Below, piece by piece: positions 23,116 through 40,633 of a stretch of 64,000 nucleotides of DNA. The notes below the pieces were generated by a model. The model worked only from the letters and a program-made list of their open reading frames with translations, made no database searches and was not told the DNA's origin. Every line of letters begins with the position of its first letter. The first letter of the stretch is position 1. The stretch is from an uncultured bacterium. Lineage in GTDB: Bacteria > Krumholzibacteriota > Krumholzibacteriia > Krumholzibacteriales > Krumholzibacteriaceae. The stretch covers positions 17,775-81,774 of the forward strand of contig CAZPAH010000002.1 in the NCBI GenBank assembly GCA_964584495.1. Reading direction: 5' to 3'. Position numbers and translations under genes: made by a program.

Positions 23116-24612
23116 CTACACGCCCGCCTCGGGCAGGGGGAGGAGTATATCGGCCCTGGTGCCTTCCCCAAGCTTGCTTTCGAGCTTGAAGGTGCCACCG
23201 TGATCCTTGATTATCCTGTACGCTATAGGTAGTCCCAGCCCGGCTCTGTCCTGCCTTCTATGAGTGGTAAAGAACGGCTCGAGGGCTCTGTCGCCTTCAC
23301 GTTCCGACATACCCTCGCCGTTATCGATAACACTTATCCTTAGATATTTTTTCGGCTGTTGTTTAGTGAAGGACTCCGTATCGGGCGGTGAGAACGAAGC
23401 CGCCGCCGCTTCGATCCTCAAAAGCCCCCCTTCAGGCATCGCATCGGCGGAATTGATGCAGATATTGAGAATGGCCCTCTCGATCTGTCCCCTGTCGATG
23501 CAAACGGTCTCCAGCCCTTCCTCGCACCGGCAGACTATCCTTATGCCGGGGGGAAAGGTCCTCTGGAGCAGGCGGCTGAGAGATTGTATGATCTCCGCGG
23601 CCGATTCTTCTTTTCTGCGGGGCAACGTGTTGTTGCCGAGCGACTGGAGTTTCCTCGTATATTCGCCGGCCTGCTCGGTCGCGTTGAGGATCTCCTCGAG
23701 ATCTTTCCTGATCGGATTATCATCTTCCAGTCCCGAAAGGACCAGTGTGGCCAGACCCGTGATCCCGCATACGATATTATTAAAATCGTGGGCGATATCT
23801 CCCGCCAGATTGATAAGGGCTTCGACCCTCTGCGTGTTCAGATAGTTATGAGCCATTCTAGTCTGTTCGGTTATATCCCTCACGATACCGCACATCCCGA
23901 TCACCTTCCGGCGCTCGCCGTCGTAGAGCGGCACCTTGGATATCTGCAGGACCGTCTTCCGCCCATTCTTGACTATCGTCCTTTCGTAACGTACCTGTTT
24001 GCCCGAGAGTACGATTTCATCAGTGCCGTCCTCTTTCTCGATCTCTATCGCATTAAGAATTGTCATCCTCTTTCCGACTATCTCCCCGGCCGTCAACCCG
24101 GCCATATCGGCGAAAGCCTTGTTGGCCAGCGTATAGATGCCGTCGCAGTCCTTAGTGAATATCGCATCGTCGACGCCTTCGAATATCGCCTTGAGGAGCT
24201 CATTTCTTTCCGCAAGGGCCTTCTTGAATTTGTCGGCCTTATCGAGATCGATGACGAATCCCGTCATCGCCGCGAGATCCCCCTTCGAATCGAATATGGG
24301 GCTCGATGTGATCCGCACCGGAAAGATCACGCCGTCTTTCCGTTTGAAATCCATATCGATTTCAGAGGATCCGGTCTCCAGTATCGATCTTATCTTTCCG
24401 GGTATTTCCTCTATTCTTTCTTTGGGCCAGAAGGGGTAAGGGGGGGTTGAACCGAGCAGCTCTTCGGTCGTGAAGGATACCATTTTGCAAAAAGCGTCAT
24501 TGACATCAATAATGACGCCTCCCTTGTCTATGACAAGAATGGCTATCGCTGCTTCCTTGAAAATGGTCCGGCTGTACTCCAGCTCTTCCATTTCTATCCC
24601 GTCGTTTCGCAT
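23116..24612 (-). CDS. PAS-domain sensor histidine kinase (cytoplasmic)
   Basis: Two PAS-like modules (IDVNDAFCKMVSFTTEELLG...; GIYTLANKAFADMAGLTAGEIVG), H-box AHDFNNIVCGITG, and HATPase_c N/G boxes (DNGEGMS; GLGLPIAYRIIKDHGGTFKLES). No TM segments. Confidence 0.8.
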   Translation of the reverse strand: MRNDGIEMEELEYSRTIFKEAAIAILVIDKGGVIIDVNDAFCKMVSFTTEELLGSTPPYPFWPKERIEEIPGKIRSILETGSSEIDMDFKRKDGVIFPVRITSSPIFDSKGDLAAMTGFVIDLDKADKFKKALAERNELLKAIFEGVDDAIFTKDCDGIYTLANKAFADMAGLTAGEIVGKRMTILNAIEIEKEDGTDEIVLSGKQVRYERTIVKNGRKTVLQISKVPLYDGERRKVIGMCGIVRDITEQTRMAHNYLNTQRVEALINLAGDIAHDFNNIVCGITGLATLVLSGLEDDNPIRKDLEEILNATEQAGEYTRKLQSLGNNTLPRRKEESAAEIIQSLSRLLQRTFPPGIRIVCRCEEGLETVCIDRGQIERAILNICINSADAMPEGGLLRIEAAAASFSPPDTESFTKQQPKKYLRISVIDNGEGMSEREGDRALEPFFTTHRRQDRAGLGLPIAYRIIKDHGGTFKLESKLGEGTRADILLPLPEAGV

Positions 24613-25124
24613 GTGTCTTGCCTCTTTTAAAACGAGAGCCGGGCTGGTAACGGGGCGTGAAGCGGTCGATCCTACGTACAGGCACGTCGACCATAATCAC
24701 GCCCGGTATCCCCTCCTTTTTTCTATCGGCCGGAAAGACCGGGCCCTTTACATTTTTTACCCGGGGGCTACCGGGAAACTCTTTGTCATTCGTAAAGATC
24801 CGGATCCCCCCCCGAGCACGACAGCAGCGCGGCGGACGCCGAGCGGCGGCCTTGTCATATTTCTTGCATAAATCCCCGCGAGCGGCGGTCATTAATGGTA
24901 AAACCGGCAGTTTGAAAGGAGCAAGGGTGTTTTGAAACGGAGAATCAACTCACACAAGCCGAAACATGCTCATCGTAAATCACAGGAAGAACGAAGAACA
25001 AACCGGACCATCGATAAATCCGAAAAGAAAATAAGGAAATACGGATTGACAGACGGAAACTTCGAGGAGGGAGAGAACGGCAACGAGGAGAGAGACCTTG
25101 CCACGAGCCTTCCCGAGTAGCGAT

Positions 25125-26231
25125 TCACTTTAAAGCATCCAACAAATCCTGCCTCGTCACTATACCGACGATAGACCCCTTTTCGTCGGTAACCGGGACG
25201 AGGCTGTATCCTCTGCCCATGATAAGCCGGTACAATCCCTCGGCCGGATCCGAGCCCTCTGCGCTTTCAAGGAGCCGGGGAAGCTCGATTACCTCTGCGA
25301 CCGCGGTGTCGGACCACCGATCCCTGGCGATATCCCTGAAATCCTCTAGTTTGACAAGGCCTGCAAATCTCCCTCCGATCACTACCGGAAAAGAATCGTA
25401 CCTGTACCTGAGAAAGTATTCCTCGACAAGGGTCTCGAGATCGAGCGAGCCGTCTACCGACACCGGTTCTCTCCTCATTATGTCGGATACCTTCCTCTCT
25501 GCGAGTATCTGCGCGAAGGCGGCATTCCTGTAGCCCGTCGATGCCGCATGCTTTAGAAAGAATCCGATGAATATCATCCATGCTCCGCTGATTAAATTAT
25601 TCTGAAAGAGGATATTCACGACTCCAAGGCCTATCAGCAAAATAGCGAATCCGCTTCCAATCCTGCCCGCCGTTCTGGTGGCCGCTATCATCTCCCCTTT
25701 CCTCATCCATAGGATACTCCGCAGTATTCTGCCGCCGTCCAATGGAAAGCCGGGAACCATGTTGAAAATGAATATCCCTATATTGATTCCGGCCACCGTC
25801 ACGAACAGCGTCTTTATGAGGAAGACCGGAGCCGACAACCAGGCCAGGAGTAAATATACCCCGATGAGAAGAAGTGTCATGGCCGGGCCGGCGGCCGCTA
25901 TCTTCAATTCGAGGTGCGGATCATCCACCTCCCTGCTCATGCTGGCGACGCCTCCGAACATGAACAGCGTTATCTTGTTGATCTTGAGCCCGTTCCTCAT
26001 CGCCACGAGAGAATGACTGAATTCGTGAATGAGAATCGAAGCGAAAAGCATCAGGGCCGTAAGAAGAGAAAGTATCCACAGCGACAAGCCGGTAAAGACC
26101 CCCGGGTAGCTTTCCGGAAAATAACCGGTTGCGAAGGTCGATACGACGAGCACGAGCACGAGCACCCAGCTTACGTTGAGCTCCACCGGAATGCCCCAAA
26201 GCCTGAACAGACGCACACTACTCTTGAACAT
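25125..26231 (-). CDS. M50-family (site-2-protease-like) zinc metallopeptidase with tandem CBS domains
   Basis: HEFSH (HExxH) in a TM helix plus further TM helices. C-terminal pair of CBS domains (VSDIMRREPVSVDG...; GRGYSLVPVTDEKGSIVGIVTRQDLLDALK). Confidence 0.75.
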   Translation of the reverse strand: MFKSSVRLFRLWGIPVELNVSWVLVLVLVVSTFATGYFPESYPGVFTGLSLWILSLLTALMLFASILIHEFSHSLVAMRNGLKINKITLFMFGGVASMSREVDDPHLELKIAAAGPAMTLLLIGVYLLLAWLSAPVFLIKTLFVTVAGINIGIFIFNMVPGFPLDGGRILRSILWMRKGEMIAATRTAGRIGSGFAILLIGLGVVNILFQNNLISGAWMIFIGFFLKHAASTGYRNAAFAQILAERKVSDIMRREPVSVDGSLDLETLVEEYFLRYRYDSFPVVIGGRFAGLVKLEDFRDIARDRWSDTAVAEVIELPRLLESAEGSDPAEGLYRLIMGRGYSLVPVTDEKGSIVGIVTRQDLLDALK

Positions 26232-26807: not shown

Positions 26808-28028
26808 TTATCCCCTCATCCTGTTGAAGCCGAGAAGATAGAGCATTAGATATTTCATTTTGAAAAGGCGCATTTTCCAGGCGGAACCTTCCCTCCCCGC
26901 GAATCTATCCAGGGTCGCGATGAAAAAAGCCGGATCGATGCGCTTGGTTATCTGCCGCCCCTTCCATAACCATGGGGAACAGCAGCCGATCCTGTTGATC
27001 TCCGACGGCTCCTGGCCGAAAACATTTTTCCTGTCAGGGTCCCAGAAGTGGGTCGTTGTCGCGAGATATCCGGCTTCCCGGGCGATCATTCTTGCTACGG
27101 GGCCGATCCCGCCGCCCGGCCAGCACAGAAAATCGATGGTGGTTCCCAATCCCGACGACAGGATCTCACGGGACCCGGCCAGCTCGTCGCGGACTCGCCT
27201 CTCGAATTCCCCGTCCGTCTCCATCCTCCCCCCTTCACCTGCCACCTTCGAGAGATCATCGAGCTCCGAACGCCAGCCGTGCCGCTCGAAAAACTCCGGC
27301 CCACCGTTCTCCGCCACATGGCGAACCAGCCTTCCGGTAAGATCGCGGTCCTCGAAATAGCGCTTTCCCGAAAGAGACTTGCCGTGACTGTATATGGGCG
27401 TTCCGTATGGGATTTCCTTTCCGATGTCGAGATTCATGTACTCGTGCTTTCTTCCGGGAAAGAGATTCCAGAAAAGCCAGGGCGGGGTTGCATATCCCTC
27501 GATCCCGCGGGGTCTGTGATAATCGAGTATCTCGGGGCCGTCGAAATACCAGGTATGTGTTTTCGCGTGGGACTGTATTTCGATATGCCCCGAAGCAGTC
27601 ATTTCCTTCATTTCCGCCCAGGAAAGAAACCCCGTCGCTCTTAGATCATCCTCTACCATGAGGCCGTTCCAACAATCCTCGATCGTCGGCCGCCTGCCGG
27701 CATAGGGATCTATAAAATCGGTCGTCATCCAGATGACGCCGCGATGGCCGTACTTCTTGAGAAGCGGGTATGCGTATACCCAGTTGTCGAGATATCCGTC
27801 GTCGAAGGTGAGCACCACGGGCTTCTCGGGCAGCGGCGCGCCCGTTTTCATATGATCGTGCAGCCGGGCGAGCGTGATCGCCGTCCATCCCTCATCCCTG
27901 AGCATCCTCATCTGCCCTTCGAAGACGTCGAGCGGGATAACGAGGTGGTTCCATATCCAATCGGGGTGTTCCGGACCCACACCGTGGTACATTACTACCG
28001 GAATCCCTGCCGGTCCGCTACTCTTCAT
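26808..28028 (-). CDS. polysaccharide deacetylase family protein (carbohydrate esterase family 4-like)
   Basis: NodB-homology motifs VVLTFDDGYLDNW and HGVIWMTTDFI plus a downstream His-rich region. 11-nt overlap with the upstream GT4 gene. Confidence 0.7.
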   Translation of the reverse strand: MKSSGPAGIPVVMYHGVGPEHPDWIWNHLVIPLDVFEGQMRMLRDEGWTAITLARLHDHMKTGAPLPEKPVVLTFDDGYLDNWVYAYPLLKKYGHRGVIWMTTDFIDPYAGRRPTIEDCWNGLMVEDDLRATGFLSWAEMKEMTASGHIEIQSHAKTHTWYFDGPEILDYHRPRGIEGYATPPWLFWNLFPGRKHEYMNLDIGKEIPYGTPIYSHGKSLSGKRYFEDRDLTGRLVRHVAENGGPEFFERHGWRSELDDLSKVAGEGGRMETDGEFERRVRDELAGSREILSSGLGTTIDFLCWPGGGIGPVARMIAREAGYLATTTHFWDPDRKNVFGQEPSEINRIGCCSPWLWKGRQITKRIDPAFFIATLDRFAGREGSAWKMRLFKMKYLMLYLLGFNRMRG

Positions 28029-29280
28029 TCCATCCCCCGGTCTCCGTCCCTTTACCGGGCCGGCCCTTCCCCCGGTACAATTCGAGATAAAGTTTCCCCA
28101 CCCTATCCGCCACGCTCCTCATGCCGTAGCCGGCCTCTATATCGGCGGCCGCTTTTCGACCTAGGCGCGCGGAAAGATCCGGCTCGGCCAGAACCCTCTC
28201 CATCGCCTCTGAGAGGGCCCCCGCATCGCCCGGCGGAACGAGCATGCCGTTTCCGCCACTCTCTATAGTCTCGGGGATCCCCCCAACCGCCGTCGCGACG
28301 ACCGCTTTGCCGGCGGCCATCGCTTCCAGCATCGAGACGGGAAGCCCTTCGCGGATGGATGATAATACAAACAGATCGGCCGCTTCAAGAAGGTCGGGGA
28401 TATCACGCCTCGATCCCGGCAGGACGAAACTCCCCTCCAATCCGAGTTCCGCAGCCTTCGCCAGTATCTCATCCCGGCGGGGACCGTCCCCGGCGATAAC
28501 GCATCTCGCTTCGGGAACCTTCTTCTTCAAGATCGAGAAGCTCTCCGCCAGGAGGGTGTAATTCTTCTCCTCGACAAGCCTCCCCGCAGAGAAGATCAGC
28601 CTGTCTTCTTCTCCCCATCCGAACTCACTCATCACGGCGGCTTTTCCCTTTCCGCCTCCCGCGAAAGATGCGGGATCGACGGCGTTGGGGATATAGATCA
28701 ATTTCCCGGCGGGTGTCTTCTCCCTGTCCCTCCTGATTTCGAGGATATCCCTGCTTACGCATATCCGCATATCGGTAATCCGGTTGAGCAGCCTCTCCAT
28801 GAGAAGGTAGGCCCTGCCCTTCCACAACCCCTTGCCGTGTTCCGTCGTCACGAGCACCGGTACCCGGGCCGCCCGCGCCGCCAATCTCCCCACCACGTCG
28901 GCGAGCACCAGGTGACAGTGCACTACATCGAATCGGCCTTTCCTCAAGAAACGCACAAGCCTGTAAAACGCCGCCGGGAAAAATCTCATTCTGAAATCGA
29001 GGAAAAGTACCGTTTCGACAACGCCTGCGGCCTCCGCCTCCATCTCCCTGTCACCCCGCTTGAAAAGACAGAGGGACACCGACAGCCTGTCCCTGTCCAG
29101 ATGCTTCAACAATTCCAGGACCTGAACTTCCGCCCCCCCGATATGAAAACGCGGAAGCAGGACGCAGACCTTCAGCTTTCTTCCGGATTCTATCAATCTC
29201 ACCCTCCACGCACGGTTAAAGCGCCCCCCGTAGGGGGCTGCCGCATCAGGCGAGTAATGATACCCCCGCTCACGGTTCAA
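28018..29280 (-). CDS. glycosyltransferase family 1 (GT4)
   Basis: GT-B fold. C-terminal motif EGLPVSMLEAMAAGKAVVATAVGGIPETIESGGNGMLV typical of GT4. Start codon choice is uncertain. Confidence 0.75.
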   Translation of the reverse strand: MNRERGYHYSPDAAAPYGGRFNRAWRVRLIESGRKLKVCVLLPRFHIGGAEVQVLELLKHLDRDRLSVSLCLFKRGDREMEAEAAGVVETVLFLDFRMRFFPAAFYRLVRFLRKGRFDVVHCHLVLADVVGRLAARAARVPVLVTTEHGKGLWKGRAYLLMERLLNRITDMRICVSRDILEIRRDREKTPAGKLIYIPNAVDPASFAGGGKGKAAVMSEFGWGEEDRLIFSAGRLVEEKNYTLLAESFSILKKKVPEARCVIAGDGPRRDEILAKAAELGLEGSFVLPGSRRDIPDLLEAADLFVLSSIREGLPVSMLEAMAAGKAVVATAVGGIPETIESGGNGMLVPPGDAGALSEAMERVLAEPDLSARLGRKAAADIEAGYGMRSVADRVGKLYLELYRGKGRPGKGTETGGWNEE

Positions 29281-29325
29281 TCAAAGGTTTTTCGCGGCGG
29301 CACCGGTATCACCGTGAATCCAGAG

Positions 29326-29366
29326 CGGGAAATAATAGGAAAAGGCCGCGACATCCCATCGCGGCC
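29326..29366 (-). terminator. rho-independent terminator downstream of the OMP gene
   Basis: On the minus strand: GGCCGCGA-tgggatg-TCGCGGCC (8-bp perfect stem, 7-nt loop) followed by UUUUCCUAUUAUUU. About 60 nt after the OMP stop. Confidence 0.5.
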
Positions 29367-29426
29367 CTGTAACCACGCCTCGCCGGCGACGTACTCTTGC
29401 CCGGGAACCGGAGAAAACGCCGCGTT

Positions 29427-30110
29427 CTAGAACTCGTAGCCGAAAAGGAGACCGAAACCGATATTCTTCGTCTCCTCCTCTTCCAAAACCTGTGTTTCGG
29501 CGATGCCGTTAATATGTCCCGAAGCAGTGCCCCCGCTGATTATCTTGGCGAAACCGAGGTTGAACCTCCCGTCGACGAGGATATTTCCTCCCCCGATCCC
29601 GTACGCGAAGCCGAAGCCGAAGACGAAGCCGAAGTCGGCGCTGCTCATGACATCCTTCATGTCGAAAGAGCCGTTGACCTGCTGCCCGAACTGTTCCCCC
29701 TCTAGCTTCATGTCTGCGCTTAGAAGTATGCCGACATCCGGTCCAATGAAAAAGGAAGTGCAGAATCCGCTCTCCGTCGGAATCGAGTATTTCGCCAGTA
29801 TCGGTATGTCGAGATAGTTGTACTCACCGGTGAACTTGAGCGCCCCGAAAGGCAGGAACATGATCTCGCCCTCGCATCCCTTCATCGTGTAGAGGAACTC
29901 CGGCTGAACGCTGAAATTCTTCGTGAAAGCGTAATTCGCGAAGGCTCCGCCCACCCATCCGTTCTTGAAAGCGGTGTCGTCCCAGCCGAGCGGAACGGTC
30001 GTGATATTGGCCGAGTATATTCCGCCCTTGGCACCGAAGGATAGCTCGCCGGCCGCAGCGGCCGTATTCAGCATCATCAAAACCGCGAGTAAAGAGATTA
30101 TCCGTTTCAT
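29427..30110 (-). CDS. outer-membrane beta-barrel protein (OmpA-like/porin-family barrel)
   Basis: Signal peptide MKRIISLLAVLMMLNTAAAA. Alternating amphipathic beta-strands. C-terminal ...GLLFGYEF with terminal Phe typical of BAM substrates. Start is set at the internal ATG (MKRIIS), preceded by GGAGAGGATGAA. Confidence 0.6.
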   Translation of the reverse strand: MKRIISLLAVLMMLNTAAAAGELSFGAKGGIYSANITTVPLGWDDTAFKNGWVGGAFANYAFTKNFSVQPEFLYTMKGCEGEIMFLPFGALKFTGEYNYLDIPILAKYSIPTESGFCTSFFIGPDVGILLSADMKLEGEQFGQQVNGSFDMKDVMSSADFGFVFGFGFAYGIGGGNILVDGRFNLGFAKIISGGTASGHINGIAETQVLEEEETKNIGFGLLFGYEF

Positions 30111-30445
30111 CAATTCATCCTCTCCGGGAAAATATCCAATAGCCCTTCGATTACGCAACAACTGCGTATCCACCCTTATCGCCCTCTCGAGATCACCCCC
30201 TCGTCATACTGCCTCCGATATAAGGTCGTCGGCCTTTATCCTAAAATATATATTTACTCGTCCGCCACAAAATAATAAAGGCCCGTAGAAATTTCCACAG
30301 TGTCCGTTGACAGTCGGCGCACCCCGCTTCCCGCTCCGTAAAATCAAGGCCTAAAAGCCGAAATCCACAGCCAACACGGCCGTTATGGAATCTCATGATC
30401 TAAGATACAGATTTTTCGGATCGATCTCAAACAAAACTTGCAGAT

Positions 30446-30461
30446 TGGCACCAGGTTTGCA
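30446..30461 (+). promoter_or_regulatory. sigma-54 (RpoN) -24/-12 promoter consensus TGGCAC-N5-TTGCA
   Basis: Exact match TGGCACcaggtTTGCA with the GG-N10-GC spacing, about 85 nt upstream of the SPFH operon ATG at 30547. Extended context gATTGGCACcaGGTTTGCAcg. No other promoter-like element lies between it and the gene. Confidence 0.5.
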
Positions 30462-30546
30462 CGAATCCCCCACGGTTCAGCATGACACAAAAAAATTACG
30501 GATTTCATTGCACAGGGTGGCCGATTTCTACCGATAGGAGGCTCCG

Positions 30547-31704
30547 ATGTCACAATTCATGGAAGTACTGGAATGGTTCGATCTAACGGGAGAAGAGATA
30601 GTGCACAGGATCCCGCCCGAGGGATCGGCGGAGATCAAGATGGGGGCCCAGCTCATCGTCAGGGACAACCAGGCATCGGTATTCTTCAAGGACGGCAAGG
30701 GACTCGATATTTTCGGCGCTGGACGTCACACCCTTACAACGAAGAACCTTCCGATATTGACCAAAATCCTCGCCCTCCCCTGGGGATTCAAGAGCCCGTT
30801 CAGGGCGGAAGTGTATTTCGTCAACATGAAGTGCTTCCTCGATCAGAAATGGGGCACGAAAGACCCCGTCGCTTTCAAGGACAGCAAGCTGGGGCTCGTC
30901 AGGCTGAGGGCTTTCGGCATCTACACGTTCAAGATCACCGAGCCGGTCCTCTTCATAAACACGGTCGTGGGGACTCAGGGCGTCTATACGAGCGAGATGA
31001 TAGGCAACTACCTGCGCGACGTCATCGTCGCCCGGATAAACGATCTGTTCGGCGAGAAGCTCGACACCATCTTCGATCTTCCGCAGAATTACGACGAGCT
31101 GGCGATGGAGATAAAGGAACGCCTCGTAAACGATTTTTCCAAGTATGGAATGGAGTTAAACGATTTCTTCATCAACTCGATAACCCCCCCTCCCGAGGTC
31201 CAGAAAATGATCGACGAGAGAAGTGGACTCGAGGCGGTGGGAAATCTCGATGATTTCTTCAAGTTCAAGGCGGCCAAGGCGATGGGCGATGCCGCTTCAT
31301 CCGGCGGTTCGGGAGCGACCGGCTCCGCCGCCTCGGGCGGCATGGGGATCGGCGTCGGGGCCGGTCTCGGGATGATGATCCCCGGGATGCTTGCGAAGAG
31401 CGCACAGCCGGGTTCGGCGGGGACGGCCACCGCCTCGGGCAGCGGCCTCCAATGTCCGAAATGCCACAATGAAATAGACGAGGAGTCGCGCTTCTGCCGG
31501 AACTGCGGAACGCAGATCGTAGTGATGAACCGTTGCCCCGAGTGCCGGAGCGAACTACCGCCCGGGGCGAAATTCTGCTCGAATTGCGGCAGCAGACTCG
31601 GAGCGGAATTGAACTGTCCTCACTGCGGCGCCAAGCTGCCTCCCGGCACCAAGTTCTGCACGAATTGCGGGGAAAAGGTGGATAAAGAGGACGATGCAGG
31701 TTAA
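30547..31704 (+). CDS. SPFH/band-7 (stomatin/prohibitin/flotillin-like) protein with Gly/Ser/Ala linker and three C-terminal zinc ribbons (COG4260-like)
   Basis: N-terminal about 245 aa SPFH-like domain. Then a low-complexity linker ([25 protein letters not shown]...). Then three tandem zinc ribbons: CPKC-x10-FCRNCG, CPEC-x10-FCSNCG, CPHC-x10-FCTNCG. RBS GGAGG 6 nt upstream. Confidence 0.8.
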
Positions 31705-32398
31705 ATGCAGCCTCTGCGGAGGCGAAAACGAGCTACATCCAGGACAGCAGATGCTGTTTTGCGTCTACTGCGGATCCTCACTCGCGATAGGCGGCGGAGA
31801 AAAGAGCGAACATCTGATTCTCCCGCACAAGAGGAACGACCGGATCGCCGAAGAGGCCCTCCGGTCTTTCCTGGCAGGGAGGGGGCTCGCGCGTCCCCGC
31901 GAGATCGAGACCGGATTTTCCTATATCCCGTATACCACGGGCGAAGACGATAAGGGCCGCCCCGTGCTTTTGCCCGCTTCCCGAGAGGCGGATCCGACCG
32001 GCGTTCTCGCTTTTCCCCCAGCCGGCAACTACCGCTATTTCGATGAAGAGGCGGCCGGAAAAGAAACGATCGTACAGCCCGGCGGTGAAATTCCGCGCGG
32101 CGTCAAGATGCTTCATCTCCCCGTATACGAGATCTCGTACCGGGCCGGGGGTGGCAGGTGGAAAGCAGCCGTGATGGGCGAGAGCCTTTTCGTCTACGCC
32201 GACGAGTTCCCGCCGGCTCAAACCGCCCCTTTGAGCGCAACCAACATGCTCGCCGCCTCTTGTCTCTTTGTTCTTTACCTCTTCGCGGGGAGATTGGGTC
32301 ACGGCTGGGCGGGACGCCTGCTGGTGACTTCGGCGGCGGCCGCGCTCGGATTCGTCGGATTCACTATCCGCAGAAGGATATTCGATGGTAGAAGATAA
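31694..32398 (+). CDS. N-terminal zinc-ribbon protein with C-terminal membrane anchor (operon partner B)
   Basis: CSLCGG-x14-CVYCG at the N-terminus; conserved LPVYEISYR motif; C-terminal hydrophobic hairpin ([16 protein letters not shown]...[17 protein letters not shown]). Overlaps the SPFH gene by 11 nt, indicating translational coupling. Confidence 0.6.
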
Positions 32399-33431
32399 TT
32401 CAGCGGTGATCGAGACCGGGAGGCGGAATGCCTCGGTCCCCTCCGAACAAGCCGGCGGAGCTTCGCGCGAGACGATAGGAGTGAACTGCCCCTCCTGCGG
32501 GGGATCGCTCCGCCTCCACGAGGGAGAGAGAAGCCTCGAGTGCGAATACTGCGGCTCGGCCCTTTTCGTCACCTGCCCCAAGGGGGTCAAGAGATTCATT
32601 CTTCCGCCGGCGATATCAGCGGGTAAAGCGAGGATGGCCGCGCTTCATCACCTTACGGAGAAGACGAACGGCAGGGTAAAGGCCCGCCACGCCTCGATAA
32701 TCGACCTCCGCCTCATACACGTCCCCTTCTGGCGCATGCACGGCAAGCTGACCGGATGGATCGCCGGCGACATGACCAGCCAGAAGGAGGTCCAAACGGT
32801 AACGCCCACGATAAACGGAGTCCAGGTCAAGACAACCTACCAGGAGGAGAAGCATCCTTTCTCCAAGCTGATATTCAAGGAGGTCGACTGGTCGTCGCCT
32901 GCCTGCTCGGTCCGCCACCTGGGACTGCAGGGGATATCCCTCAAGGCGCGATTCCTCAAGTGGGATGTGTTCGACCATAAGATGACGGAAGAACTGAACA
33001 CCGCCCTTCCCATGAAACCGGTCCGGCGGGCCGAAAGAGAGGGGTTCCAATACCTGTCACGCCTTTCCATGCCGACCGGCTCGAACGTCCGCGGCTCGAG
33101 GTTTCACCTATTCGGCAACACCCTTTCGCTGTACTACTACCCAGTATACATCCTCCGTTACAGGCACAGGGGGATGATTCACGCGATCACCATAGACGGC
33201 GGCGACGGACGGATAATCCGTGGCGATATTCCTAAGAGGAAGCTGATAGATTCGAGATCCCTCTTTTTCATCCCAGCCGGAATCGCCTTCCTCGCGTCCA
33301 CCTGGTTTCCGCTCATTTTTATTGCCGCAGCCGGAGTATACGCCTGGGACTCTTTCCAGGCATCCGCATTCGAGCCTCCGCACAGGTGGCTGCTGGGGCG
33401 TCTCGATGACTGGTTCGGGGGTGAGATGTAG
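32385..33431 (+). CDS. N-terminal zinc-ribbon protein with C-terminal TM helix (operon partner C, paralog of B)
   Basis: CPSCGG-x14-CEYCG; shares the YPVYILRYR / LPVYEISYR motif with partner B; C-terminal TM (FFIPAGIAFLASTWFPLIFIAAAGVYAW). 14-nt overlap with the previous gene. Confidence 0.6.
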   Translation: MVEDNSAVIETGRRNASVPSEQAGGASRETIGVNCPSCGGSLRLHEGERSLECEYCGSALFVTCPKGVKRFILPPAISAGKARMAALHHLTEKTNGRVKARHASIIDLRLIHVPFWRMHGKLTGWIAGDMTSQKEVQTVTPTINGVQVKTTYQEEKHPFSKLIFKEVDWSSPACSVRHLGLQGISLKARFLKWDVFDHKMTEELNTALPMKPVRRAEREGFQYLSRLSMPTGSNVRGSRFHLFGNTLSLYYYPVYILRYRHRGMIHAITIDGGDGRIIRGDIPKRKLIDSRSLFFIPAGIAFLASTWFPLIFIAAAGVYAWDSFQASAFEPPHRWLLGRLDDWFGGEM

Positions 33432-33432
33432 G

Positions 33433-34263
33433 ATGGACGGAAAGATCGGCGTGAAGGTCCTAAGGTGCGAAGAGTGCGGAACGCCGTTGCCCGTTATGGG
33501 CAGGTTCGTGACCTTTCAGTGCCCTACCTGCTTCCGGTTTTGGATCATAAACTCCGACAGGCTGGCCCCTCTTGCCGTTTACAGAGCCCCCCTTCCCGAA
33601 GGTTACGAGGGAGATCCCCTGCTTCTCCCCTTCTGGATGATCGAGATAGAGAAGGAGGAGTTGCGTGGAAGAATAGATTCGTCGCTCGCCAGGCTCAACG
33701 AGGCAGCCATGATCATCGCCGGAAAGAGCCTTGAGGAGAGCCGGGCCCAGGTCGAGATAACTACCGGCGAGATCGAGGGAGATCCCAGCCCGGGCGCCAA
33801 AACGGCGATGATAGGCGACGCCGTGCGCGTCAAGAAATCCGTCTCGGACAGCGAGATCAATTTCCTCTTGAGAAAACTGGAAGGCCCGGGTTTCTCGTTC
33901 GTATACGTTCCGGCCTTCCATACGGTCAACGGCTTCGCCTACCTCAAGGTGGGCCGGCTTCTGACAAGGGTCCAGCCCTCGTTCAAGCCGTCAAGGGTCC
34001 AGCTGCCCGACAATCCAGTCTACTGTGCTCTGACCGCCGACGACGCCCTCTCGCTGATCGACTACGTCTTCTTCGCGACCCTTCCCGAATCGATACGGGA
34101 ATGCGCGGAAATCCTGGAGGATATAGAGCTGCGCCCCGCCTCCCCCCCCAGGCTTGTGGAATTCCCCTTCGAACAGAGGGGTGCCGACCTGAAAAGCCTT
34201 ATCGGTGATTTCAACATATCAATAAGGCTTCTCGACGGCTCGGGAAGGTCTTCGGAGGAATGA
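33433..34263 (+). CDS. N-terminal zinc-ribbon protein, soluble (operon partner D)
   Basis: CEECG-x14-CPTC at the N-terminus with the same C-x2-C-x14-C-x2-C spacing as partners B and C. No TM segments. The ATG lies 1 nt after the partner C stop. The track ORF starts earlier but overlaps partner C. Confidence 0.55.
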   Translation: MDGKIGVKVLRCEECGTPLPVMGRFVTFQCPTCFRFWIINSDRLAPLAVYRAPLPEGYEGDPLLLPFWMIEIEKEELRGRIDSSLARLNEAAMIIAGKSLEESRAQVEITTGEIEGDPSPGAKTAMIGDAVRVKKSVSDSEINFLLRKLEGPGFSFVYVPAFHTVNGFAYLKVGRLLTRVQPSFKPSRVQLPDNPVYCALTADDALSLIDYVFFATLPESIRECAEILEDIELRPASPPRLVEFPFEQRGADLKSLIGDFNISIRLLDGSGRSSEE

Positions 34264-34381
34264 TCCTTCCACCGGGTCGGCCCGCTTCGAACCTCTTTAC
34301 CCCAGATATTTTAGCCCCGGCATAGGCAATAATTTCCCGCGATCTTGACCGGACCCGCCGCCGGAATGGATCACGGATAGC

Positions 34382-34407
34382 GGGGATCGTTTAATCCCTT
34401 TTGTTTA
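34382..34407 (+). terminator. putative intrinsic terminator after the SPFH/zinc-ribbon operon
   Basis: GGGGAT-cgttta-ATCCCU stem-loop (5-6 bp) followed by UUUUGUUU, about 120 nt after the last operon gene. Modest stem, so low confidence. Confidence 0.4.
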
Positions 34408-34521
34408 CAGGCTGTTATTTGGGCGTCTCTTTTTGCCCTGGCCGCCCACCTTTCAGGCAACCTTCTTGCGTTTCGATTCCGCGAGAAGAACGGACAATCA
34501 AATACGGGAGATGAAACGGGT

Positions 34522-36066
34522 TTGACGGAACGAACCGGCCTCGAGGAGCCCCTAAGGGAAGAGATCGCCGCGGAGCGCGAAAGCGCCACCGGTCCCATCC
34601 CCGTCCGATGCGAACCGCCGGAAGGGGCTGAGGACGGCTCACGCGTAATCAGGCGTGTCGCCAGGAACACCCTTTCGCTTACCGGAGCCAATCTCGCCAG
34701 CAGCGGCCTGACGTTCCTCGCCACAGCCTACCTGGCGCGAATCCTCACCGCCGAGGGGTTCGGGATACTCGGATTCGCCCAGGCGGCGATGACCTATTTC
34801 ACCCTCCTGATCAACATGGGGTTCGCCCATTACGGGGTGAGGGAGATCGCCCGCAGGCCGGGCGATGTCGACCGTTACGTCAACAACATCGTCACGATCA
34901 GGACCATTCTCGCCGCGGTGAGCTACGCCCTGCTCTTTCTCTTCGCCTACTCGATCTCGAAACCGTTCACAGTCAAAGCGGCGATCCTCATACTCGGCCT
35001 GAAGCTTTTCAGCCTCACCTTCAACCTCAGATGGGTCTTCCAGGGCAAGGAGAGGATGGGATGGATAGCGGTCAGCAGATTCGTCCCCCAGCTCTTTTAC
35101 GCGGCGGCCGTCTTCCTGCTGGTGGAACACCGCGAGCAGGTCCTAAGGGTTCCCGCACTGCAGGTGGCCTCGACCGCAGCGGGAACCGCCATCCTATTGG
35201 CCCTCTATCTTAGAAGCGGACGGAGGTTGAAATTCAGCATCGACATGCCGTTCTGGAGGGAAATATTCAGGCAATCCATTCCGATGGCGGCCAGCTACGT
35301 TCTCAACCAGGTCTACGTGAACTTCGACATGATCTTCCTGGGTTTCACGCATGGAGAGAAGACGGTGGGATTCTATCACGCCGCGAACAGGATCGTTCTG
35401 ACGATCAACATGTTCGGCACATATTACTTCTTCAGCCTTTTCCCGAACCTCTCGAGAATCTTCTTCGATTCGAGGGAGAAGCTCCAGGCGCTCGTATCGA
35501 ACAGCATTAAATATGTGACGATCCTTCTTTTCCCGGTTGCCGTGGGCGGAACCGTGCTCGCCGGACCGATCATACGGACGGCCTTCGGGAGCGGGTATGC
35601 GGCCAGCGTGCTGCCCCTCCAGCTTCTCATTTGGAACGTCGTCATTATAAATATACGGCAGCACTACAGCAACACGCTGATAGCCTGCAACCTTCAAAAA
35701 CGGTACATGTACTGCGCTGCCCTGGGGGCCGCGACGAACATAGTTCTGAACATGATCTTCATCCCGCGCTTCGGTATGCCCGCGGCCGCCTGCACGACGA
35801 TATTCTCCGAGCTCGTCGTCCTCGCCTCGATCCGCAGGGAAACGGGAAAGATTATAAAAACCCGTATCTGGAGGGTAATCGCCAGGCCCCTGGCGGCCTC
35901 ACTGGCGATGGGCGGTATCCTCCTGCAGACGGGAGGATGGAACATCTTCGGAAGAGTAGCGCTCGGCGCATCGGTCTACTTCCCCCTCCTGTTCCTGGTG
36001 GGAGGCCTGAGCGGAAAGGATATTCGAAGGTTGAGCAGGATCGGCCGCGAACGGAACCGGCGGTAG
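34522..36066 (+). CDS. polysaccharide biosynthesis protein / Wzx-like flippase (MOP superfamily)
   Basis: Polytopic (about 12-14 TM) protein after a roughly 50-aa cytoplasmic N-extension. Hydrophobicity pattern and length match oligosaccharide flippases of Wzx/RfbX type. Confidence 0.6.
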   Translation: MTERTGLEEPLREEIAAERESATGPIPVRCEPPEGAEDGSRVIRRVARNTLSLTGANLASSGLTFLATAYLARILTAEGFGILGFAQAAMTYFTLLINMGFAHYGVREIARRPGDVDRYVNNIVTIRTILAAVSYALLFLFAYSISKPFTVKAAILILGLKLFSLTFNLRWVFQGKERMGWIAVSRFVPQLFYAAAVFLLVEHREQVLRVPALQVASTAAGTAILLALYLRSGRRLKFSIDMPFWREIFRQSIPMAASYVLNQVYVNFDMIFLGFTHGEKTVGFYHAANRIVLTINMFGTYYFFSLFPNLSRIFFDSREKLQALVSNSIKYVTILLFPVAVGGTVLAGPIIRTAFGSGYAASVLPLQLLIWNVVIINIRQHYSNTLIACNLQKRYMYCAALGAATNIVLNMIFIPRFGMPAAACTTIFSELVVLASIRRETGKIIKTRIWRVIARPLAASLAMGGILLQTGGWNIFGRVALGASVYFPLLFLVGGLSGKDIRRLSRIGRERNRR

Positions 36067-36122
36067 TATGACCAAGCGCGGGCCCCTCGCCACCGCGGCC
36101 GCTTCGGAGGAGATGTAGAAGG

Positions 36123-37835
36123 TTGAAAACGGGAAAGGATATCGTCTCAAAATACCGCCTCTCGGCGAATGGAGATCCCGCGGCGGACGATCCCCGCCTC
36201 CGGGGACACCTCTGCAGCCGCCCGTCATACAGGGGGCCCGGCGGCCTCTGGCATCATTCGTATTTCGATGCGCTGGACGGGGGCCGCCCGGTCTACCGCT
36301 GGAACACTGGGGCCATACTGTCGGCGATCTCGTTCCACTACGCCGTCGGAGACATGACGCTCCTCGAGGAGATCCGCCGCGATCCATGGCTTTCCCGGAT
36401 CGACGAGGGCCAGGAACCCTACCTTCTCGATATCCCGCCTCACGGCCGCCGTATCGAAAAAACAGAGACGATCGCCGGGAACCTCCTGGAGAAGCTGCGC
36501 GATGAGGCGGCCGGCGCGTGCCGCGGACGCGACGATATCTATATCCTTCTGTCGGGGGGGCTCGACAGCAGGATCGTTGCCTCAACGGTCGCCCGGTTGT
36601 ACGATGAGGGCAGGATAAAAAACAGGCCGGCGGCCGTGACATGGGGTCTCGAGAATTCCCGCGACTATCAGTACGGCCGGGCCGTCGCCCGGACACTCGG
36701 GTTGGAGTGGATACACATAGATATTGGCCCCGGGACGTTGATCGAGAACATCGAGCTCTCGGCGCTCAACGGAAACCTCCTCCCCCCATCCGACCTTCAC
36801 TGCCTGTCCTGGTTCAGGCGTCTCTCTCCCGCCTCCCTCGTCCTGGCCGGCAGCTATGGCGACTCGATCGGCCGCGGCGAATACAGCGGGCAGCATCTTC
36901 TGGAGCTGAGGTATCACAATCCGTCTAACCTGTTCGGCCTGGTCCGTGCTGAGCTGTGCGCTCCGGCGGCCCGGCGGGTGGAGAAGGAGCTGACGGCGCT
37001 TCGAGGCAGAGGCGCAGGTAGACCCGTCTACGCCGTGTGCGAGCTGGAGCAGCAGGCGCATTACATGAGGGGGATGATCCATCAAGCTATCAGCATCGTA
37101 TCCTCATGGTGCGACGTCTATCAGCTTTTCACAGATCCCTCCGTCTACTCCTACATCTGGTCGATCCACCCATCGCTCAGGGGAAACGCTATCTACGCCT
37201 CACTTCTTGAGCTTTTGGATCGACGCCTCGCCCGTATCCCCTGGGCCAGAACCAACCGGGCCATGAGTGGGAAAACCGTCGGGAGGCTCGGAGGTCTACA
37301 AAAAGAGTTTCACAACTACTCCGATTGGATAAGCGGGGAGCTTTACAAGCGGATATCGGAGTATGTCGATCCCGCCTGGTTCGCCTCCACCGGAATCTTC
37401 AACGGGGACAAGGTCGAGCGGCTGGGGGCACGCCTCTCGCCCGGCCGTGCGGGAGGAGAAGGCGGATCTTTCAAACCGTACAGCGTCTACCTCTGGCTCG
37501 CCGCCTTCAGGAGATTCGCCGAGCTGTGCGGGGAGCGGGGCAAGACGCTCGAGCTTTCTGAGGAAAGGGACAAAGCCTGCCCGAGCGCCCTGCTCGATCA
37601 TCCTCCCGACGACAGGTCCTTCCTGAGAAAGGTTATCGGCAGGTCCAGGAAGGCCAGGGAGCTCAGGCGCAAGTTTCGAAGGGTACGTCTTAAAAAACGG
37701 GCGCTGAAGGAGTTCCCTCCCGAACCGGACGACGGGCGGCTCCACGGGGAAACGTGGAACGGAGCGACCGCCCCGGGAAAAGACCTAAGTCCCGGAATAG
37801 AAAAGACTAAAGTCCCTGTTTCAGGATCCGAATAG
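36123..37835 (+). CDS. asparagine-synthetase-domain protein lacking the N-terminal glutaminase domain
   Basis: PP-loop motif LSGGLDSRIVAS of the AsnB synthetase (ATP pyrophosphatase) domain, but the N-terminus has no Cys-2 Ntn glutaminase signature (MCG). Followed by a full-length AsnB paralog. Confidence 0.55.
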   Translation: MKTGKDIVSKYRLSANGDPAADDPRLRGHLCSRPSYRGPGGLWHHSYFDALDGGRPVYRWNTGAILSAISFHYAVGDMTLLEEIRRDPWLSRIDEGQEPYLLDIPPHGRRIEKTETIAGNLLEKLRDEAAGACRGRDDIYILLSGGLDSRIVASTVARLYDEGRIKNRPAAVTWGLENSRDYQYGRAVARTLGLEWIHIDIGPGTLIENIELSALNGNLLPPSDLHCLSWFRRLSPASLVLAGSYGDSIGRGEYSGQHLLELRYHNPSNLFGLVRAELCAPAARRVEKELTALRGRGAGRPVYAVCELEQQAHYMRGMIHQAISIVSSWCDVYQLFTDPSVYSYIWSIHPSLRGNAIYASLLELLDRRLARIPWARTNRAMSGKTVGRLGGLQKEFHNYSDWISGELYKRISEYVDPAWFASTGIFNGDKVERLGARLSPGRAGGEGGSFKPYSVYLWLAAFRRFAELCGERGKTLELSEERDKACPSALLDHPPDDRSFLRKVIGRSRKARELRRKFRRVRLKKRALKEFPPEPDDGRLHGETWNGATAPGKDLSPGIEKTKVPVSGSE

Positions 37836-37877
37836 GTAAGTGAGCGAAGATCGCCATTATTCAAGAAAGGACCGCTA

Positions 37878-39860
37878 ATGTGCGGCATAGCCGGTATATT
37901 TCATCTCGACCCCAGAGCCGAAGCGGACCGGTCCCTCCTCGCCGGGATGACCGATATCCTCGCCCACAGGGGCCCGGACGACAGCGGGCTCTACGTTGAC
38001 GGCCGGATCGGTCTCGGCCACAGGAGGCTCTCCATAATCGACCTGCGGACCGGTCAGCAGCCGATGTCGTCGAACGACCGCACCGTCTGGCTCGTTCTCA
38101 ACGGGGAGATATACAATTTCAAGGAACTGAGGCGCGAGCTGAGATCGTTCGGCCACGCGTTCCGGACCAGATCGGATACTGAGGTTGTAATTCAGGCCTA
38201 TAACCAGTGGGGAACCGGTTTCCTTGGGAAGATGAACGGCATGTTCGCCCTCGCCCTCTGGGATTGCAGCCGGTCCCGCCTCGTGCTGGCGAGGGACCGC
38301 CTTGGAATCAAGCCTCTCTACACGACCGTCGCGGGAAACGCCCTCCTATTCGCCTCCGAGATCAAGTCGCTGCTCCGATACCCCGGCGTGCGCCGCGAAC
38401 CCGATCCCGAATCGATCTCCGCCTATCTCGGATTCAGGTGCCCGCTCGGCGACAAGACTCTTTTCAAGAAGATAGAAAAGCTGAGCCCGGGACACATGCT
38501 GGTCGCCGAGAACGGCTACCTATCCAAAATATCGTACTGGGAGCTTCCCCTCGATGGAAAGCGGAAGGACCGAGGCGAGGAATACTACGTCAAAAAGATC
38601 CGGTCACTTCTGAAGCGCTCTGTGAGGCGGAGGATGATCAGCGACGTTCCGATCGGCGCATACCTCAGCGGGGGCCTCGACAGCTCGATCATAGTGTCCC
38701 TAATGGCCGGCATGAGCCGGTCCCCCGTGAAGACCTACACGATAGGATTCGAGGAGGAGGGATACAACGAGCGCCGGTACGCCCGGTTGGCGGCCGACAT
38801 GTACGGCACCGACCACCGGGAGATCCTGCTGGGCGACGACGATTACACGAGCCTGATCCCCGAGCTGATCCGCTTCAAGGACGCCCCCCTTTCGGTGGCG
38901 AACGAGATACCGCTCTACGTGATGTCGAGGGAGCTGAAGAAGGATATCACCGTCGTCCTGTCCGGAGAGGGGGCCGACGAGCTGTTCGCCGGCTACGGCC
39001 GTATATTCAGATCTCCATTCGACTACGAGAGGGCCCTCTTCCTTGAAACCGACACCGAGATCCTTCCGCAATACAGGGAAACCCTCCTGTCACGGGTCGA
39101 GGATATATACGGCACCCGCTCCTTCCTGAACGAGCTGGTCCACTTCATGAAAAAGTACAGATGGATGAGTCCCGCCGACAAGGGGATATTCCTCTCACAG
39201 CCCCTTCTCGATTCGATCAACGGGGACGAGAGGGCGCTGGGCTACTTCGCCTCCCAGATGAAGGACGCCATGCATCTGAACCACTACGAAAAGCTTCTCT
39301 ACATCTTCCAGAAAACTCATCTCGAGAACCTCCTAATGCGGGTCGACATGACCACGATGGCTGCATCGGTCGAGGCACGAGTGCCCTTCGTCGACCACGA
39401 ATTGGTCGAGTTCGTTTTCACGATGCCATTCCATTACAAGATCAGATGGAAGAGCGATCTCCACAAGCTGATGGCCGCTTTTCTGGCGAGCGACGAGATC
39501 AGCGAAAAATTCGATACACCTAAATACATACTGAGAAGATCATTCTCCTCCGACCTGCCAGAAGAGATACTGACCCGCCGGAAGATGGGATTCCCCGTCC
39601 CGTTGGACCGGTGGATGGGAGGCGGGTATGCCCTGTTCATGAGGGAGATTCTTCTCGACGGGCGGACGCGCCGAAGGGGGATGTTCAATATCGGTTCGGT
39701 CGAGAAACAGCTGGGCCGCGCAGAGGAACATGACCACGGAACGGCCCTCAAGCTCTGGATGCTTATGAACCTGGAGCTTTGGTTCAGGGAGTATATAGAT
39801 AAACCGGAAGGGGGAAAGGTTTCTGCCGGCCGCGGCCCCGAGCTCGCCGCGGCCGTCTGA
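37878..39860 (+). CDS. asparagine synthase (glutamine-hydrolysing) family amidotransferase
   Basis: Starts MCGIAGIF (catalytic Cys2 of the class-II glutamine amidotransferase), RLSIIDL, PP-loop YLSGGLDSSIIVS. 660 aa, typical of AsnB-like enzymes that sit in polysaccharide loci. Confidence 0.8.
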   Translation: MCGIAGIFHLDPRAEADRSLLAGMTDILAHRGPDDSGLYVDGRIGLGHRRLSIIDLRTGQQPMSSNDRTVWLVLNGEIYNFKELRRELRSFGHAFRTRSDTEVVIQAYNQWGTGFLGKMNGMFALALWDCSRSRLVLARDRLGIKPLYTTVAGNALLFASEIKSLLRYPGVRREPDPESISAYLGFRCPLGDKTLFKKIEKLSPGHMLVAENGYLSKISYWELPLDGKRKDRGEEYYVKKIRSLLKRSVRRRMISDVPIGAYLSGGLDSSIIVSLMAGMSRSPVKTYTIGFEEEGYNERRYARLAADMYGTDHREILLGDDDYTSLIPELIRFKDAPLSVANEIPLYVMSRELKKDITVVLSGEGADELFAGYGRIFRSPFDYERALFLETDTEILPQYRETLLSRVEDIYGTRSFLNELVHFMKKYRWMSPADKGIFLSQPLLDSINGDERALGYFASQMKDAMHLNHYEKLLYIFQKTHLENLLMRVDMTTMAASVEARVPFVDHELVEFVFTMPFHYKIRWKSDLHKLMAAFLASDEISEKFDTPKYILRRSFSSDLPEEILTRRKMGFPVPLDRWMGGGYALFMREILLDGRTRRRGMFNIGSVEKQLGRAEEHDHGTALKLWMLMNLELWFREYIDKPEGGKVSAGRGPELAAAV

Positions 39861-39876
39861 GGGGAGCCTGAATAAG

Positions 39877-40620
39877 ATGAGAGTAATAATACTGGCGGCG
39901 GGAAAGGGAGAACGGCTCTATCCGTTGACGAAAAACAGCCCCAAGAGCCTTCTTGAGCTTGGCGGGGGCAAAACCGTTCTGGAAAGCCAGCTCGAGCATA
40001 TCGCCACGGTGGGGATCGGCGATGTGACAATCGTCACCGGATACAAGACGGAACAGATCGAAGCCAAGGTTCTCGGTTTCGACGGTCTCGAAATCACGAT
40101 CTGCTATAATCCTTTCTTCTCGACGAGCAACAACCTGATATCGGCCTGGCTGGCGATCCGGGAAACGGGGGAAAACTTCGTGCTAGTCAACGGAGACGAC
40201 GTATTCAAGGTCCACGTGCTCTCGGGGCTGCTCGAATCGAAAAACGATATCACCATGGTGATAGACCGCAAGGAGGAGTACGACTCCGACGACATGAAGG
40301 TAATCACACGCGGCGGAAGAATCCTGGAAGTAAGCAAGGAGATCGATCCGGCCAGGGCCGACGGAGAATCGATCGGGATGATCCTATTCAGGGGAAAGGG
40401 CCGAACGATCATCAGGGAGACGCTGGAGAGGATGGTCCGCAGGGATGAAGCCAAGAATATCTTCTACCTGGCCGCCCTCCAGGAGATCATGAACATGGGC
40501 TTCCCGGTGAACTACCATGAATGCTCGCGGGAAGACTGGGCGGAGATCGATTTCCATTCGGATCTTTCATTCATCCGCTCACGGATAGACAGATACGCGG
40601 CCGATATAGTGAACGTATGA
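39877..40620 (+). CDS. sugar-/alcohol-phosphate cytidylyltransferase-like nucleotidyltransferase (IPCT/LicC-like)
   Basis: MRVIILAAGKGERLYPLTKNSPKSLLELGG is the G-x-G-x-R-L nucleotide-binding loop of small nucleotidyltransferases. 247 aa. Confidence 0.6.
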   Translation: MRVIILAAGKGERLYPLTKNSPKSLLELGGGKTVLESQLEHIATVGIGDVTIVTGYKTEQIEAKVLGFDGLEITICYNPFFSTSNNLISAWLAIRETGENFVLVNGDDVFKVHVLSGLLESKNDITMVIDRKEEYDSDDMKVITRGGRILEVSKEIDPARADGESIGMILFRGKGRTIIRETLERMVRRDEAKNIFYLAALQEIMNMGFPVNYHECSREDWAEIDFHSDLSFIRSRIDRYAADIVNV

Positions 40621-40633
40621 TGAAAGGACGGCG

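Follow-up and report, generated by a model that had tools for sequence, protein, structure and literature searches.

On balance, we lean towards the view that four genes of an uncultured bacterium of the Krumholzibacteriaceae encode a membrane complex at the cytoplasmic face, related to the SamG/SamI part of the Bacillus pspA-ydjGHI (also called pspA-samGHI) envelope-stress system. The genes, here named A, B, C and D, occupy positions 30547-34263 of the window, by which we mean the whole 64,000-nucleotide (nt) stretch of contig CAZPAH010000002.1 that was analysed. A encodes a putatively soluble SPFH protein, B and C encode paralogous zinc-ribbon proteins with C-terminal hydrophobic segments, and D encodes a soluble ribbon protein. 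Pairwise and profile comparisons tie A to YdjI (SamI) and B and C to YdjG (SamG). Moreover, B, C and D recur together as a trio in distant lineages, with or without an SPFH gene beside them, which bears on the proposal of an earlier note on this DNA that each of the three ribbons of A pairs with one of the three downstream proteins.

Gene organization and conservation

The four genes are packed tightly on the forward strand, which also carries all features of the operon given below. Gene A (30547-31704, 385 aa) encodes the YdjI/SamI-type, putatively soluble SPFH protein, gene B (31694-32398, 234 aa) a short YdjG/SamG-type, putatively tail-anchored ribbon protein, gene C (32385-33431, 348 aa) its long paralog of the same type, and gene D (33433-34263, 276 aa) a soluble ribbon protein that has no fold assignment. 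The coordinates in the open reading frame (ORF) table give overlaps of 11 nt between A and B and of 14 nt between B and C, and a gap of 1 nt between C and D, as the earlier note had read them. A Shine-Dalgarno-like purine-rich stretch lies 5' of every start, and an AGGAGG stands 7-12 nt ahead of the ATG of gene A. For gene D, the ATG at 33433 agrees with the orthologs and with the NCBI gene call, whereas the mechanical ORF opens at a TTG at 33322. All four proteins are recorded with identical sequences as called genes on one 82.6-kb NCBI contig, and their close homologs are named as proteins of Krumholzibacteriota metagenome-assembled genomes (MAGs).

A survey of the phylum, in which one genome per species was scanned, yielded 41 loci, all from Krumholzibacteriota, UBP1 or "Latescibacteria"-labelled MAGs. 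The order A-B-C-D, with tight or overlapping junctions, was present in every locus of sufficient length, which confirms the neighbourhood conservation that the earlier note had put forward as a check. Because the arrangement recurs in all long-enough loci of 41 species and the ribbon cysteines are invariant, it is not a product of chance; A-B-C-D is a real, conserved operon-like unit. The A orthologs are 70-84% identical (34 loci). Their ribbon count varies: 22 loci have three-ribbon forms, 9 have two-ribbon forms and 3 have one-ribbon forms. Whatever the count, all three partner genes accompany A wherever the contig reaches far enough.

The SPFH protein A

Residues 26-228 of A (30622-31230) match Pfam Band_7_1 (PF13421) at 4.8e-65, with 219.6 bits against a cut-off of 24. 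Hydropathy analysis found no N-terminal hydrophobic segment. The sole hydrophobic stretch is a Gly/Met-rich linker at residues 265-283 (31339-31395), whose Kyte-Doolittle 19-residue mean of 1.45 is borderline. This linker is kept in all orthologs of the phylum as well as in the archaeal and Ignavibacteria SPFH partners described below, and it matches the low-complexity region of SamI by position. The segment may dip into the membrane, or it may be a flexible low-complexity linker as in SamI.

The C-terminus carries three tandem zinc ribbons (31453-31668; residues 303-320, 330-347 and 357-374), each a C-x2-C-x10-C-x2-C unit, with cysteines at 303/306/317/320, 330/333/344/347 and 357/360/371/374. 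Pfam DZR (4.4e-26) and Zn_Ribbon_1 (9.7e-24) each match in three stretches, so that the count of exactly three in the earlier note holds for both the family matches and the twelve cysteines. BLASTP aligned A with B. subtilis YdjI at 27% identity over 326 aa (E 4e-33), in an alignment that spans the linker and the first ribbon. By this alignment, A is a YdjI homolog.

The paralogs B and C

B and C each carry one C-x2-C-x14-C-x2-C ribbon, at Cys 5/8/23/26 in B (31706-31771) and Cys 35/38/53/56 in C (32487-32552), and all eight cysteines are invariant in the ortholog alignments. The earlier note had described all three downstream proteins as beginning with ribbons of this spacing. The x14 spacing stands for B, C and D, but the ribbon of C starts at residue 35, preceded by about 30 poorly conserved residues that are modelled with low confidence. 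The note's picture needs a second correction, since the ribbons of A have x10 spacing and are of another type than those of the partners.

Aligned with hhalign, the B and C families match at 98.6% probability (E 9e-16) over 215 columns, from the ribbon through the hydrophobic tail, and a PVY..YR strand is common to both. The profile alignment thus identifies B and C as full-length paralogs, in agreement with the earlier note, which had also assigned them C-terminal anchors. By hydropathy, B has a pair of C-terminal hydrophobic segments at residues 178-199 and 207-225 (32225-32368), the position of which is conserved among orthologs. C has a hydrophobic hairpin at residues 292-321 (33258-33347; hydropathy 2.02) with a W-F-P break, modelled in the predicted structure as helices 290-306 and 309-326. 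Among the four proteins, such C-terminal segments are confined to B and C.

Between ribbon and tail, B and C have a globular domain of the YdjG type (YpeB-related, NTF2/PepSY-like). In C it corresponds to a predicted cytoplasmic alpha+beta region at residues 69-280 (32589-33224), and sequence identity to YpeB/PepSY proteins is only 12-16%. The partner ribbons run directly into conserved strands of this domain, as seen in the alignment and in the model of C. Since the ribbon is N-terminal, no signal peptide or early transmembrane segment is present and the hydrophobic parts are C-terminal, the globular parts of B and C should face the cytoplasm and the two proteins should be tail-anchored. This would set them apart from YpeB and most PepSY domains, which are extracytoplasmic; here the PepSY-like domain should be cytoplasmic, as it follows a cytoplasmic ribbon and no signal peptide or transmembrane segment precedes it. 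C has 140 close homologs. Searches of B, C and D against Pfam, NCBIfam and PADLOC returned no family above threshold, all ribbon hits being sub-threshold.

Protein D and C-D fusions

The ribbon of D (33466-33531) comprises Cys 12, 15, 30 and 33 in the same C-x2-C-x14-C-x2-C spacing. C30 and C33 are invariant in the orthologs, and C12 and C15 are present in all sequences with a complete N-terminus. No hydrophobic segment was detected in D by hydropathy. D was also considered as a further paralog of B or C, but against their profiles it reached a probability of only 36-55%, in the ribbon region alone. The length of D, which varies with the presence or absence of a helical insertion, showed no consistent relation to the ribbon number of A across loci.

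Among the top 150 representatives matched by the C-family profile (see below), many are C-like proteins with a length of 460-510 aa and a further ribbon at around residue 270. The C-terminal half of long C-like proteins matches the D family: residues 412-600 of P0234 at 97% (E 8e-11), and residues 255-467 of P0297 at 84.6%. These matches identify C and D as one polypeptide in many lineages, which suggests that the two proteins work together physically. One candidate was rejected: a single 852-aa B-C-D ORF (L040:6269-8827), considered as a triple fusion, has Arg-rich out-of-frame joins and looks like a long-read indel error.

The B-C-D trio in distant lineages

The C-family profile was scored against 1.84 billion cluster representatives and matched 1537 proteins at E<=0.001, 246 of them at E<=1e-10. 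Besides the long forms, the top 150 matches include C-like proteins (320-380 aa) that have a single ribbon and two hydrophobic segments, B-like proteins close to 250 aa in length, and forms with two N-terminal ribbons.

We examined ten gene contexts of distant C-like proteins. A B-like gene lies directly upstream of the C-like gene in all ten (hhalign 98-99.6%), and a small gene lies directly downstream in all ten. The small gene product matches the D family at 84-98% in nine contexts, the match being limited to the ribbon region in four of the nine; the downstream gene call of L051 is truncated. The x14 spacing of the partner ribbons is kept in every full-length gene call, the downstream calls of L051 and L052 being N-terminally truncated. 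In the contexts examined, the B-C-D trio is thus an invariant core, and by these profile matches it ranges over Krumholzibacteriota, Ignavibacteria, Chloroflexi-type bacteria and methanogen-related archaea.

The SPFH gene is less constant. A Band_7_1 gene stands directly upstream of the trio in five of the ten contexts, namely Methanoperedenaceae L045, Ignavibacteria L046 and L047, and metagenomic L052 and L053. No SPFH gene adjoins the trio in the other five (Thermoflexales L050, and L051, L054, L055 and L056). Where the SPFH gene is present, its product carries three ribbons in L045, L052 and L053, whereas in the Ignavibacteria it is ribbonless and terminates in a SHOCT domain.

Several further genes accompany the trio in these loci. 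Directly upstream of the SPFH gene, the SPFH-bearing distant loci carry a fifth conserved gene, which encodes a helical protein of about 170 aa (L045:3531-4055, L046:3631-4161, L047:3590-4120, L052:411-920 and, in part, L053:1-315). Identity between the archaeal and Ignavibacteria copies is 30%; near the N-terminus, the four full-length copies keep a (K/R)xIPG(F/Y)xGY motif, and GY(S/G) is present in all five. The protein matched no Pfam family and showed no similarity to PspA or to solved structures, and neither the window nor the Krumholzibacteriota loci contain its gene. In L054, an additional YdjG-like protein of 468 aa (L054:3692-5098) is encoded upstream of the trio, in the place that an SPFH gene occupies in other loci; its residues 180-436 match the broad C-like profile at 98.9% (hhalign). 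In the related loci L051 and L056, the trio is followed by a phospholipase-D (PLD)-family gene with two PLDc_2 domains (L051:7563-8633, L056:7585-8685) and a large DUF87-type gene. These PLD-family neighbours may hint at a lipid or membrane link.

Relation to the Bacillus system

In Bacillus, the SPFH protein YdjI/SamI is soluble and carries a low-complexity linker and, at its C-terminus, a zinc finger (PMC8581546; bioRxiv 10.64898/2026.02.06.704340). YdjG consists of zinc ribbons, a YpeB-related NTF2-like domain and a transmembrane segment (Ravi et al., PMC11237479). Deletion of ydjG or ydjH leads to loss of the membrane foci of YdjI and PspA (PMC8581546). SamI has been described as a restraint on SamGH, which are proposed to signal and were previously noted to be non-homologous to PspBC (bioRxiv 10.64898/2026.02.06.704340).

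The Bacillus locus used for comparison was taken from a metagenome contig and located through the published ydjG primer sequence. YdjG matches a broad C-like profile at 98.8% (hhalign, E 6e-17) in an alignment of 262 columns that starts at its second ribbon and reaches the transmembrane segment, and the C family matches the same profile at 100% (E 4e-53). The match of YdjG to the B profile is 86%. These profile matches place B and C in the YdjG superfamily.

The likeness extends to the architecture of the proteins and of the locus. A and YdjI have in common the soluble Band_7_1 domain, the Gly/Met-rich linker and a C4 ribbon at the C-terminus; B and C follow the YdjG plan of N-terminal ribbon, YpeB-like domain and C-terminal membrane segment; and in both systems the anchor genes adjoin the SPFH gene. 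However, the gene order is reversed here, with the SPFH gene first, and the host is of the Krumholzibacteriota type and not a Firmicute. Two YdjG-type paralogs stand in place of one, with one ribbon each versus two in YdjG, and A has three ribbons versus one in YdjI. Additionally, the soluble protein D is without a Bacillus counterpart.

Two other known arrangements resemble the operon less closely. In SPFH-NfeD operons (stomatin/STOPP, FloA-NfeD, QmcA-YbbJ), the gene of an SPFH scaffold is likewise tightly coupled to genes of membrane-anchored partners. However, Pfam shows neither an NfeD nor an OB-fold domain in B, C and D, and the SPFH protein of this operon, a Band_7_1 type, appears by hydropathy to have no transmembrane anchor of its own, the linker being borderline. 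E. coli PspABC is alike by analogy only, in that small membrane sensor or anchor proteins serve a peripheral oligomer acting on the inner membrane; there is no sequence or fold relationship, and a PspA/ESCRT-III protein is absent from the operon.

Genomic surroundings

The operon is preceded by an intergenic region of 373 nt (30174-30546) between A and a divergent outer membrane protein (OMP) beta-barrel gene, which is presumed to hold the promoter; a search upstream of A for the sigma-70 consensus gave no convincing match. An Rfam scan of 29800-34700 found no RNA element in or around the operon. At the 3' border, a gap of about 260 nt separates the operon from a Wzx-type flippase gene. Genes of an envelope-glycan kind lie on both sides (26808-30173 and 34522-41398), among them two asparagine-synthase-like genes and a CDP-alcohol phosphatidyltransferase gene. 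In the Ignavibacteria locus L046, glycosyltransferase and methyltransferase genes follow the module (L046:7764-12824). A few kb upstream in the window, on the opposite strand (23116-26231), are two genes, one histidine-kinase-like (PAS-PAS) and one for an M50 site-2 protease with CBS domains; another PAS-domain histidine-kinase-like gene (PAS and HATPase_c) lies upstream of the module in L002.

Discussion

We describe a four-gene module whose components A and B/C, judged by the alignments above, belong to known kinds. In the model that we favour, B and C would be held in the membrane by their C-terminal hydrophobic hairpins, with the ribbon and the YpeB/PepSY-like part in the cytoplasm, and D, which is predicted to be soluble, would bind C. 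B, C and D would form a self-standing trio at the membrane. A, a soluble SPFH scaffold presumably lacking a transmembrane anchor of its own, would be recruited to the trio or restrained by it, and would oligomerise at this platform as SPFH proteins do, in the service of surveillance or organisation of the membrane or envelope. Gene linkage, the C-D fusions and Bacillus genetics are the grounds from which we infer a physical B-C-D complex, the recruitment of A and a stress-related role.

Several observations weigh against this model. The match of YdjG to the narrow C profile is weak (51%), and the homology depends on the intermediate profile. No pspA was found in the operon by Pfam, nor in the 64-kb window or the orthologous loci by tblastn with B. 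subtilis PspA, a search of BLAST sensitivity only; the effector arm of the Bacillus system may therefore be missing or encoded elsewhere. Similarly, no YdjH/TPM protein was found in the operon by Pfam, nor in the window and fetched loci by tblastn, again at BLAST sensitivity only. The resemblance to ydjGHI that the earlier note had put forward is thus borne out as homology of A to YdjI and of B and C to YdjG, but not as a full counterpart with pspA and ydjH. Furthermore, the direct two-hybrid partner of YdjI is YdjH and not YdjG (PMC8581546). In half of the distant contexts no SPFH gene adjoins the trio, so that the SPFH protein may be only one of several clients. Finally, the Gly-rich hydrophobic linker of A might itself touch the membrane.

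A broader proposal we advance tentatively and with less than even confidence. The trio, made up of two tail-anchored ribbon/PepSY-like paralogs and a soluble ribbon protein with what would be a new fold, may be an undescribed, ancient cytoplasmic-face complex common to Bacteria and Archaea that serves for docking or sensing in general, with the Band_7_1 SPFH protein, and in some lineages the helical protein, as facultative clients and Firmicute SamG as a reduced, derived remnant.

Other readings of the module were weighed. The fixed 3:3 assembly suggested by the earlier note, in which each ribbon of A binds one of the three partners through that partner's N-terminal ribbon, is unlikely. Three ribbons and three partners do coincide here and in 22 orthologous loci, as well as in the distant lineages L045 (Methanoperedenaceae), L052 and L053, and all three partner ribbons share the x14 spacing. 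However, the trio is unchanged where the SPFH protein has two ribbons (9 loci), one ribbon (3 loci) or a ribbonless, SHOCT-tailed form (Ignavibacteria), and also where no SPFH gene adjoins. The partner count of three therefore belongs to the trio and not to the ribbon array. In B. subtilis, moreover, YdjI has one ribbon and YdjG two; the SPFH ribbons (x10, Pfam DZR) are of another type than the partner ribbons, and the latter lead straight into conserved strands of the globular domain. From the counts across loci, the ribbon triplet of A is an appendage that varies and can be dispensed with, and not a one-to-one docking array, although ribbons and partners may touch in the three-ribbon SPFH forms.

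A second alternative is that the module assists in making or exporting envelope polysaccharide, scaffolding or regulating the neighbouring glycosyltransferase and flippase machinery instead of sensing membrane stress at large. The surroundings invite this reading: a polysaccharide deacetylase, a family 4 glycosyltransferase (GT4) and the OMP barrel are encoded on one side of the operon, and the Wzx-type flippase, asparagine synthases and a nucleotidyltransferase on the other. Glycan genes are also found near orthologous loci, and GT4 and GT2 genes lie downstream in the Ignavibacteria loci. In Bacillus, ydjG/ydjH mutants mislocalise wall synthesis (PMC8581546), and samI mutants are defective in biofilm matrix assembly (bioRxiv 10.64898/2026.02.06.704340). 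Nevertheless, the archaeal and other distant loci have different flanks (cobalamin, toxin-antitoxin, dehydrogenase and PLD genes), only the module itself is conserved, and enzyme and transporter domains are lacking in all four proteins. We consider the accessory role improbable.

It is still less probable that B, C and D serve in signalling or regulation while tethered to the membrane, through ribbons that bind nucleic acid or a transcription or sigma factor, with the SPFH protein as a brake. Such a role would accord with the proposal that SamGH signal and SamI restrains them (bioRxiv 10.64898/2026.02.06.704340), with the TF_Zn_Ribbon hit of YdjG noted by Popp et al., and with source annotations that label homologs as RpoP-like or TFIIB-like ribbons. 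These labels are automatic, however, and all ribbon hits fall under the family cut-offs; moreover, the proteins have no DNA-binding domain, and no conserved regulator gene adjoins the module. That the operon is an anti-phage defence system or mobile-element cargo, as the toxin-antitoxin genes near the archaeal copy might suggest, is very improbable given its stable, syntenic position within the phylum, the lack of any significant PADLOC match for A-D (two weak hits of C, E 0.006 and 0.06) and the lack of a tblastn match of C in 72,556 plasmids or 50,697 phages.

Taken together, the comparisons favour the cytoplasmic-face membrane complex related to SamG/SamI. In the family libraries and literature searched, the B-C-D trio as a fixed set, the family of D, the fusion of C with D and the presence of the trio in archaea appear to be undescribed, and the earlier note, which knew of no described system with exactly this architecture, is borne out to that extent. 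To our knowledge, no soluble SPFH scaffold other than that of SamG/SamI has been studied that relies on membrane anchors dedicated to it, and SamG/SamI is known from Bacillus alone. The profile matches show that the anchor family is much wider than Bacillus (1537 representatives at E<=1e-3), that it normally forms a fixed trio with D and that it reaches the archaea, which provides a broader evolutionary frame for the tethering of peripheral SPFH proteins. The natural C-D fusions serve as evidence for a complex, and the natural variants with three, two, one and zero ribbons as material for testing the role of the C-terminal ribbons of COG4260 proteins.

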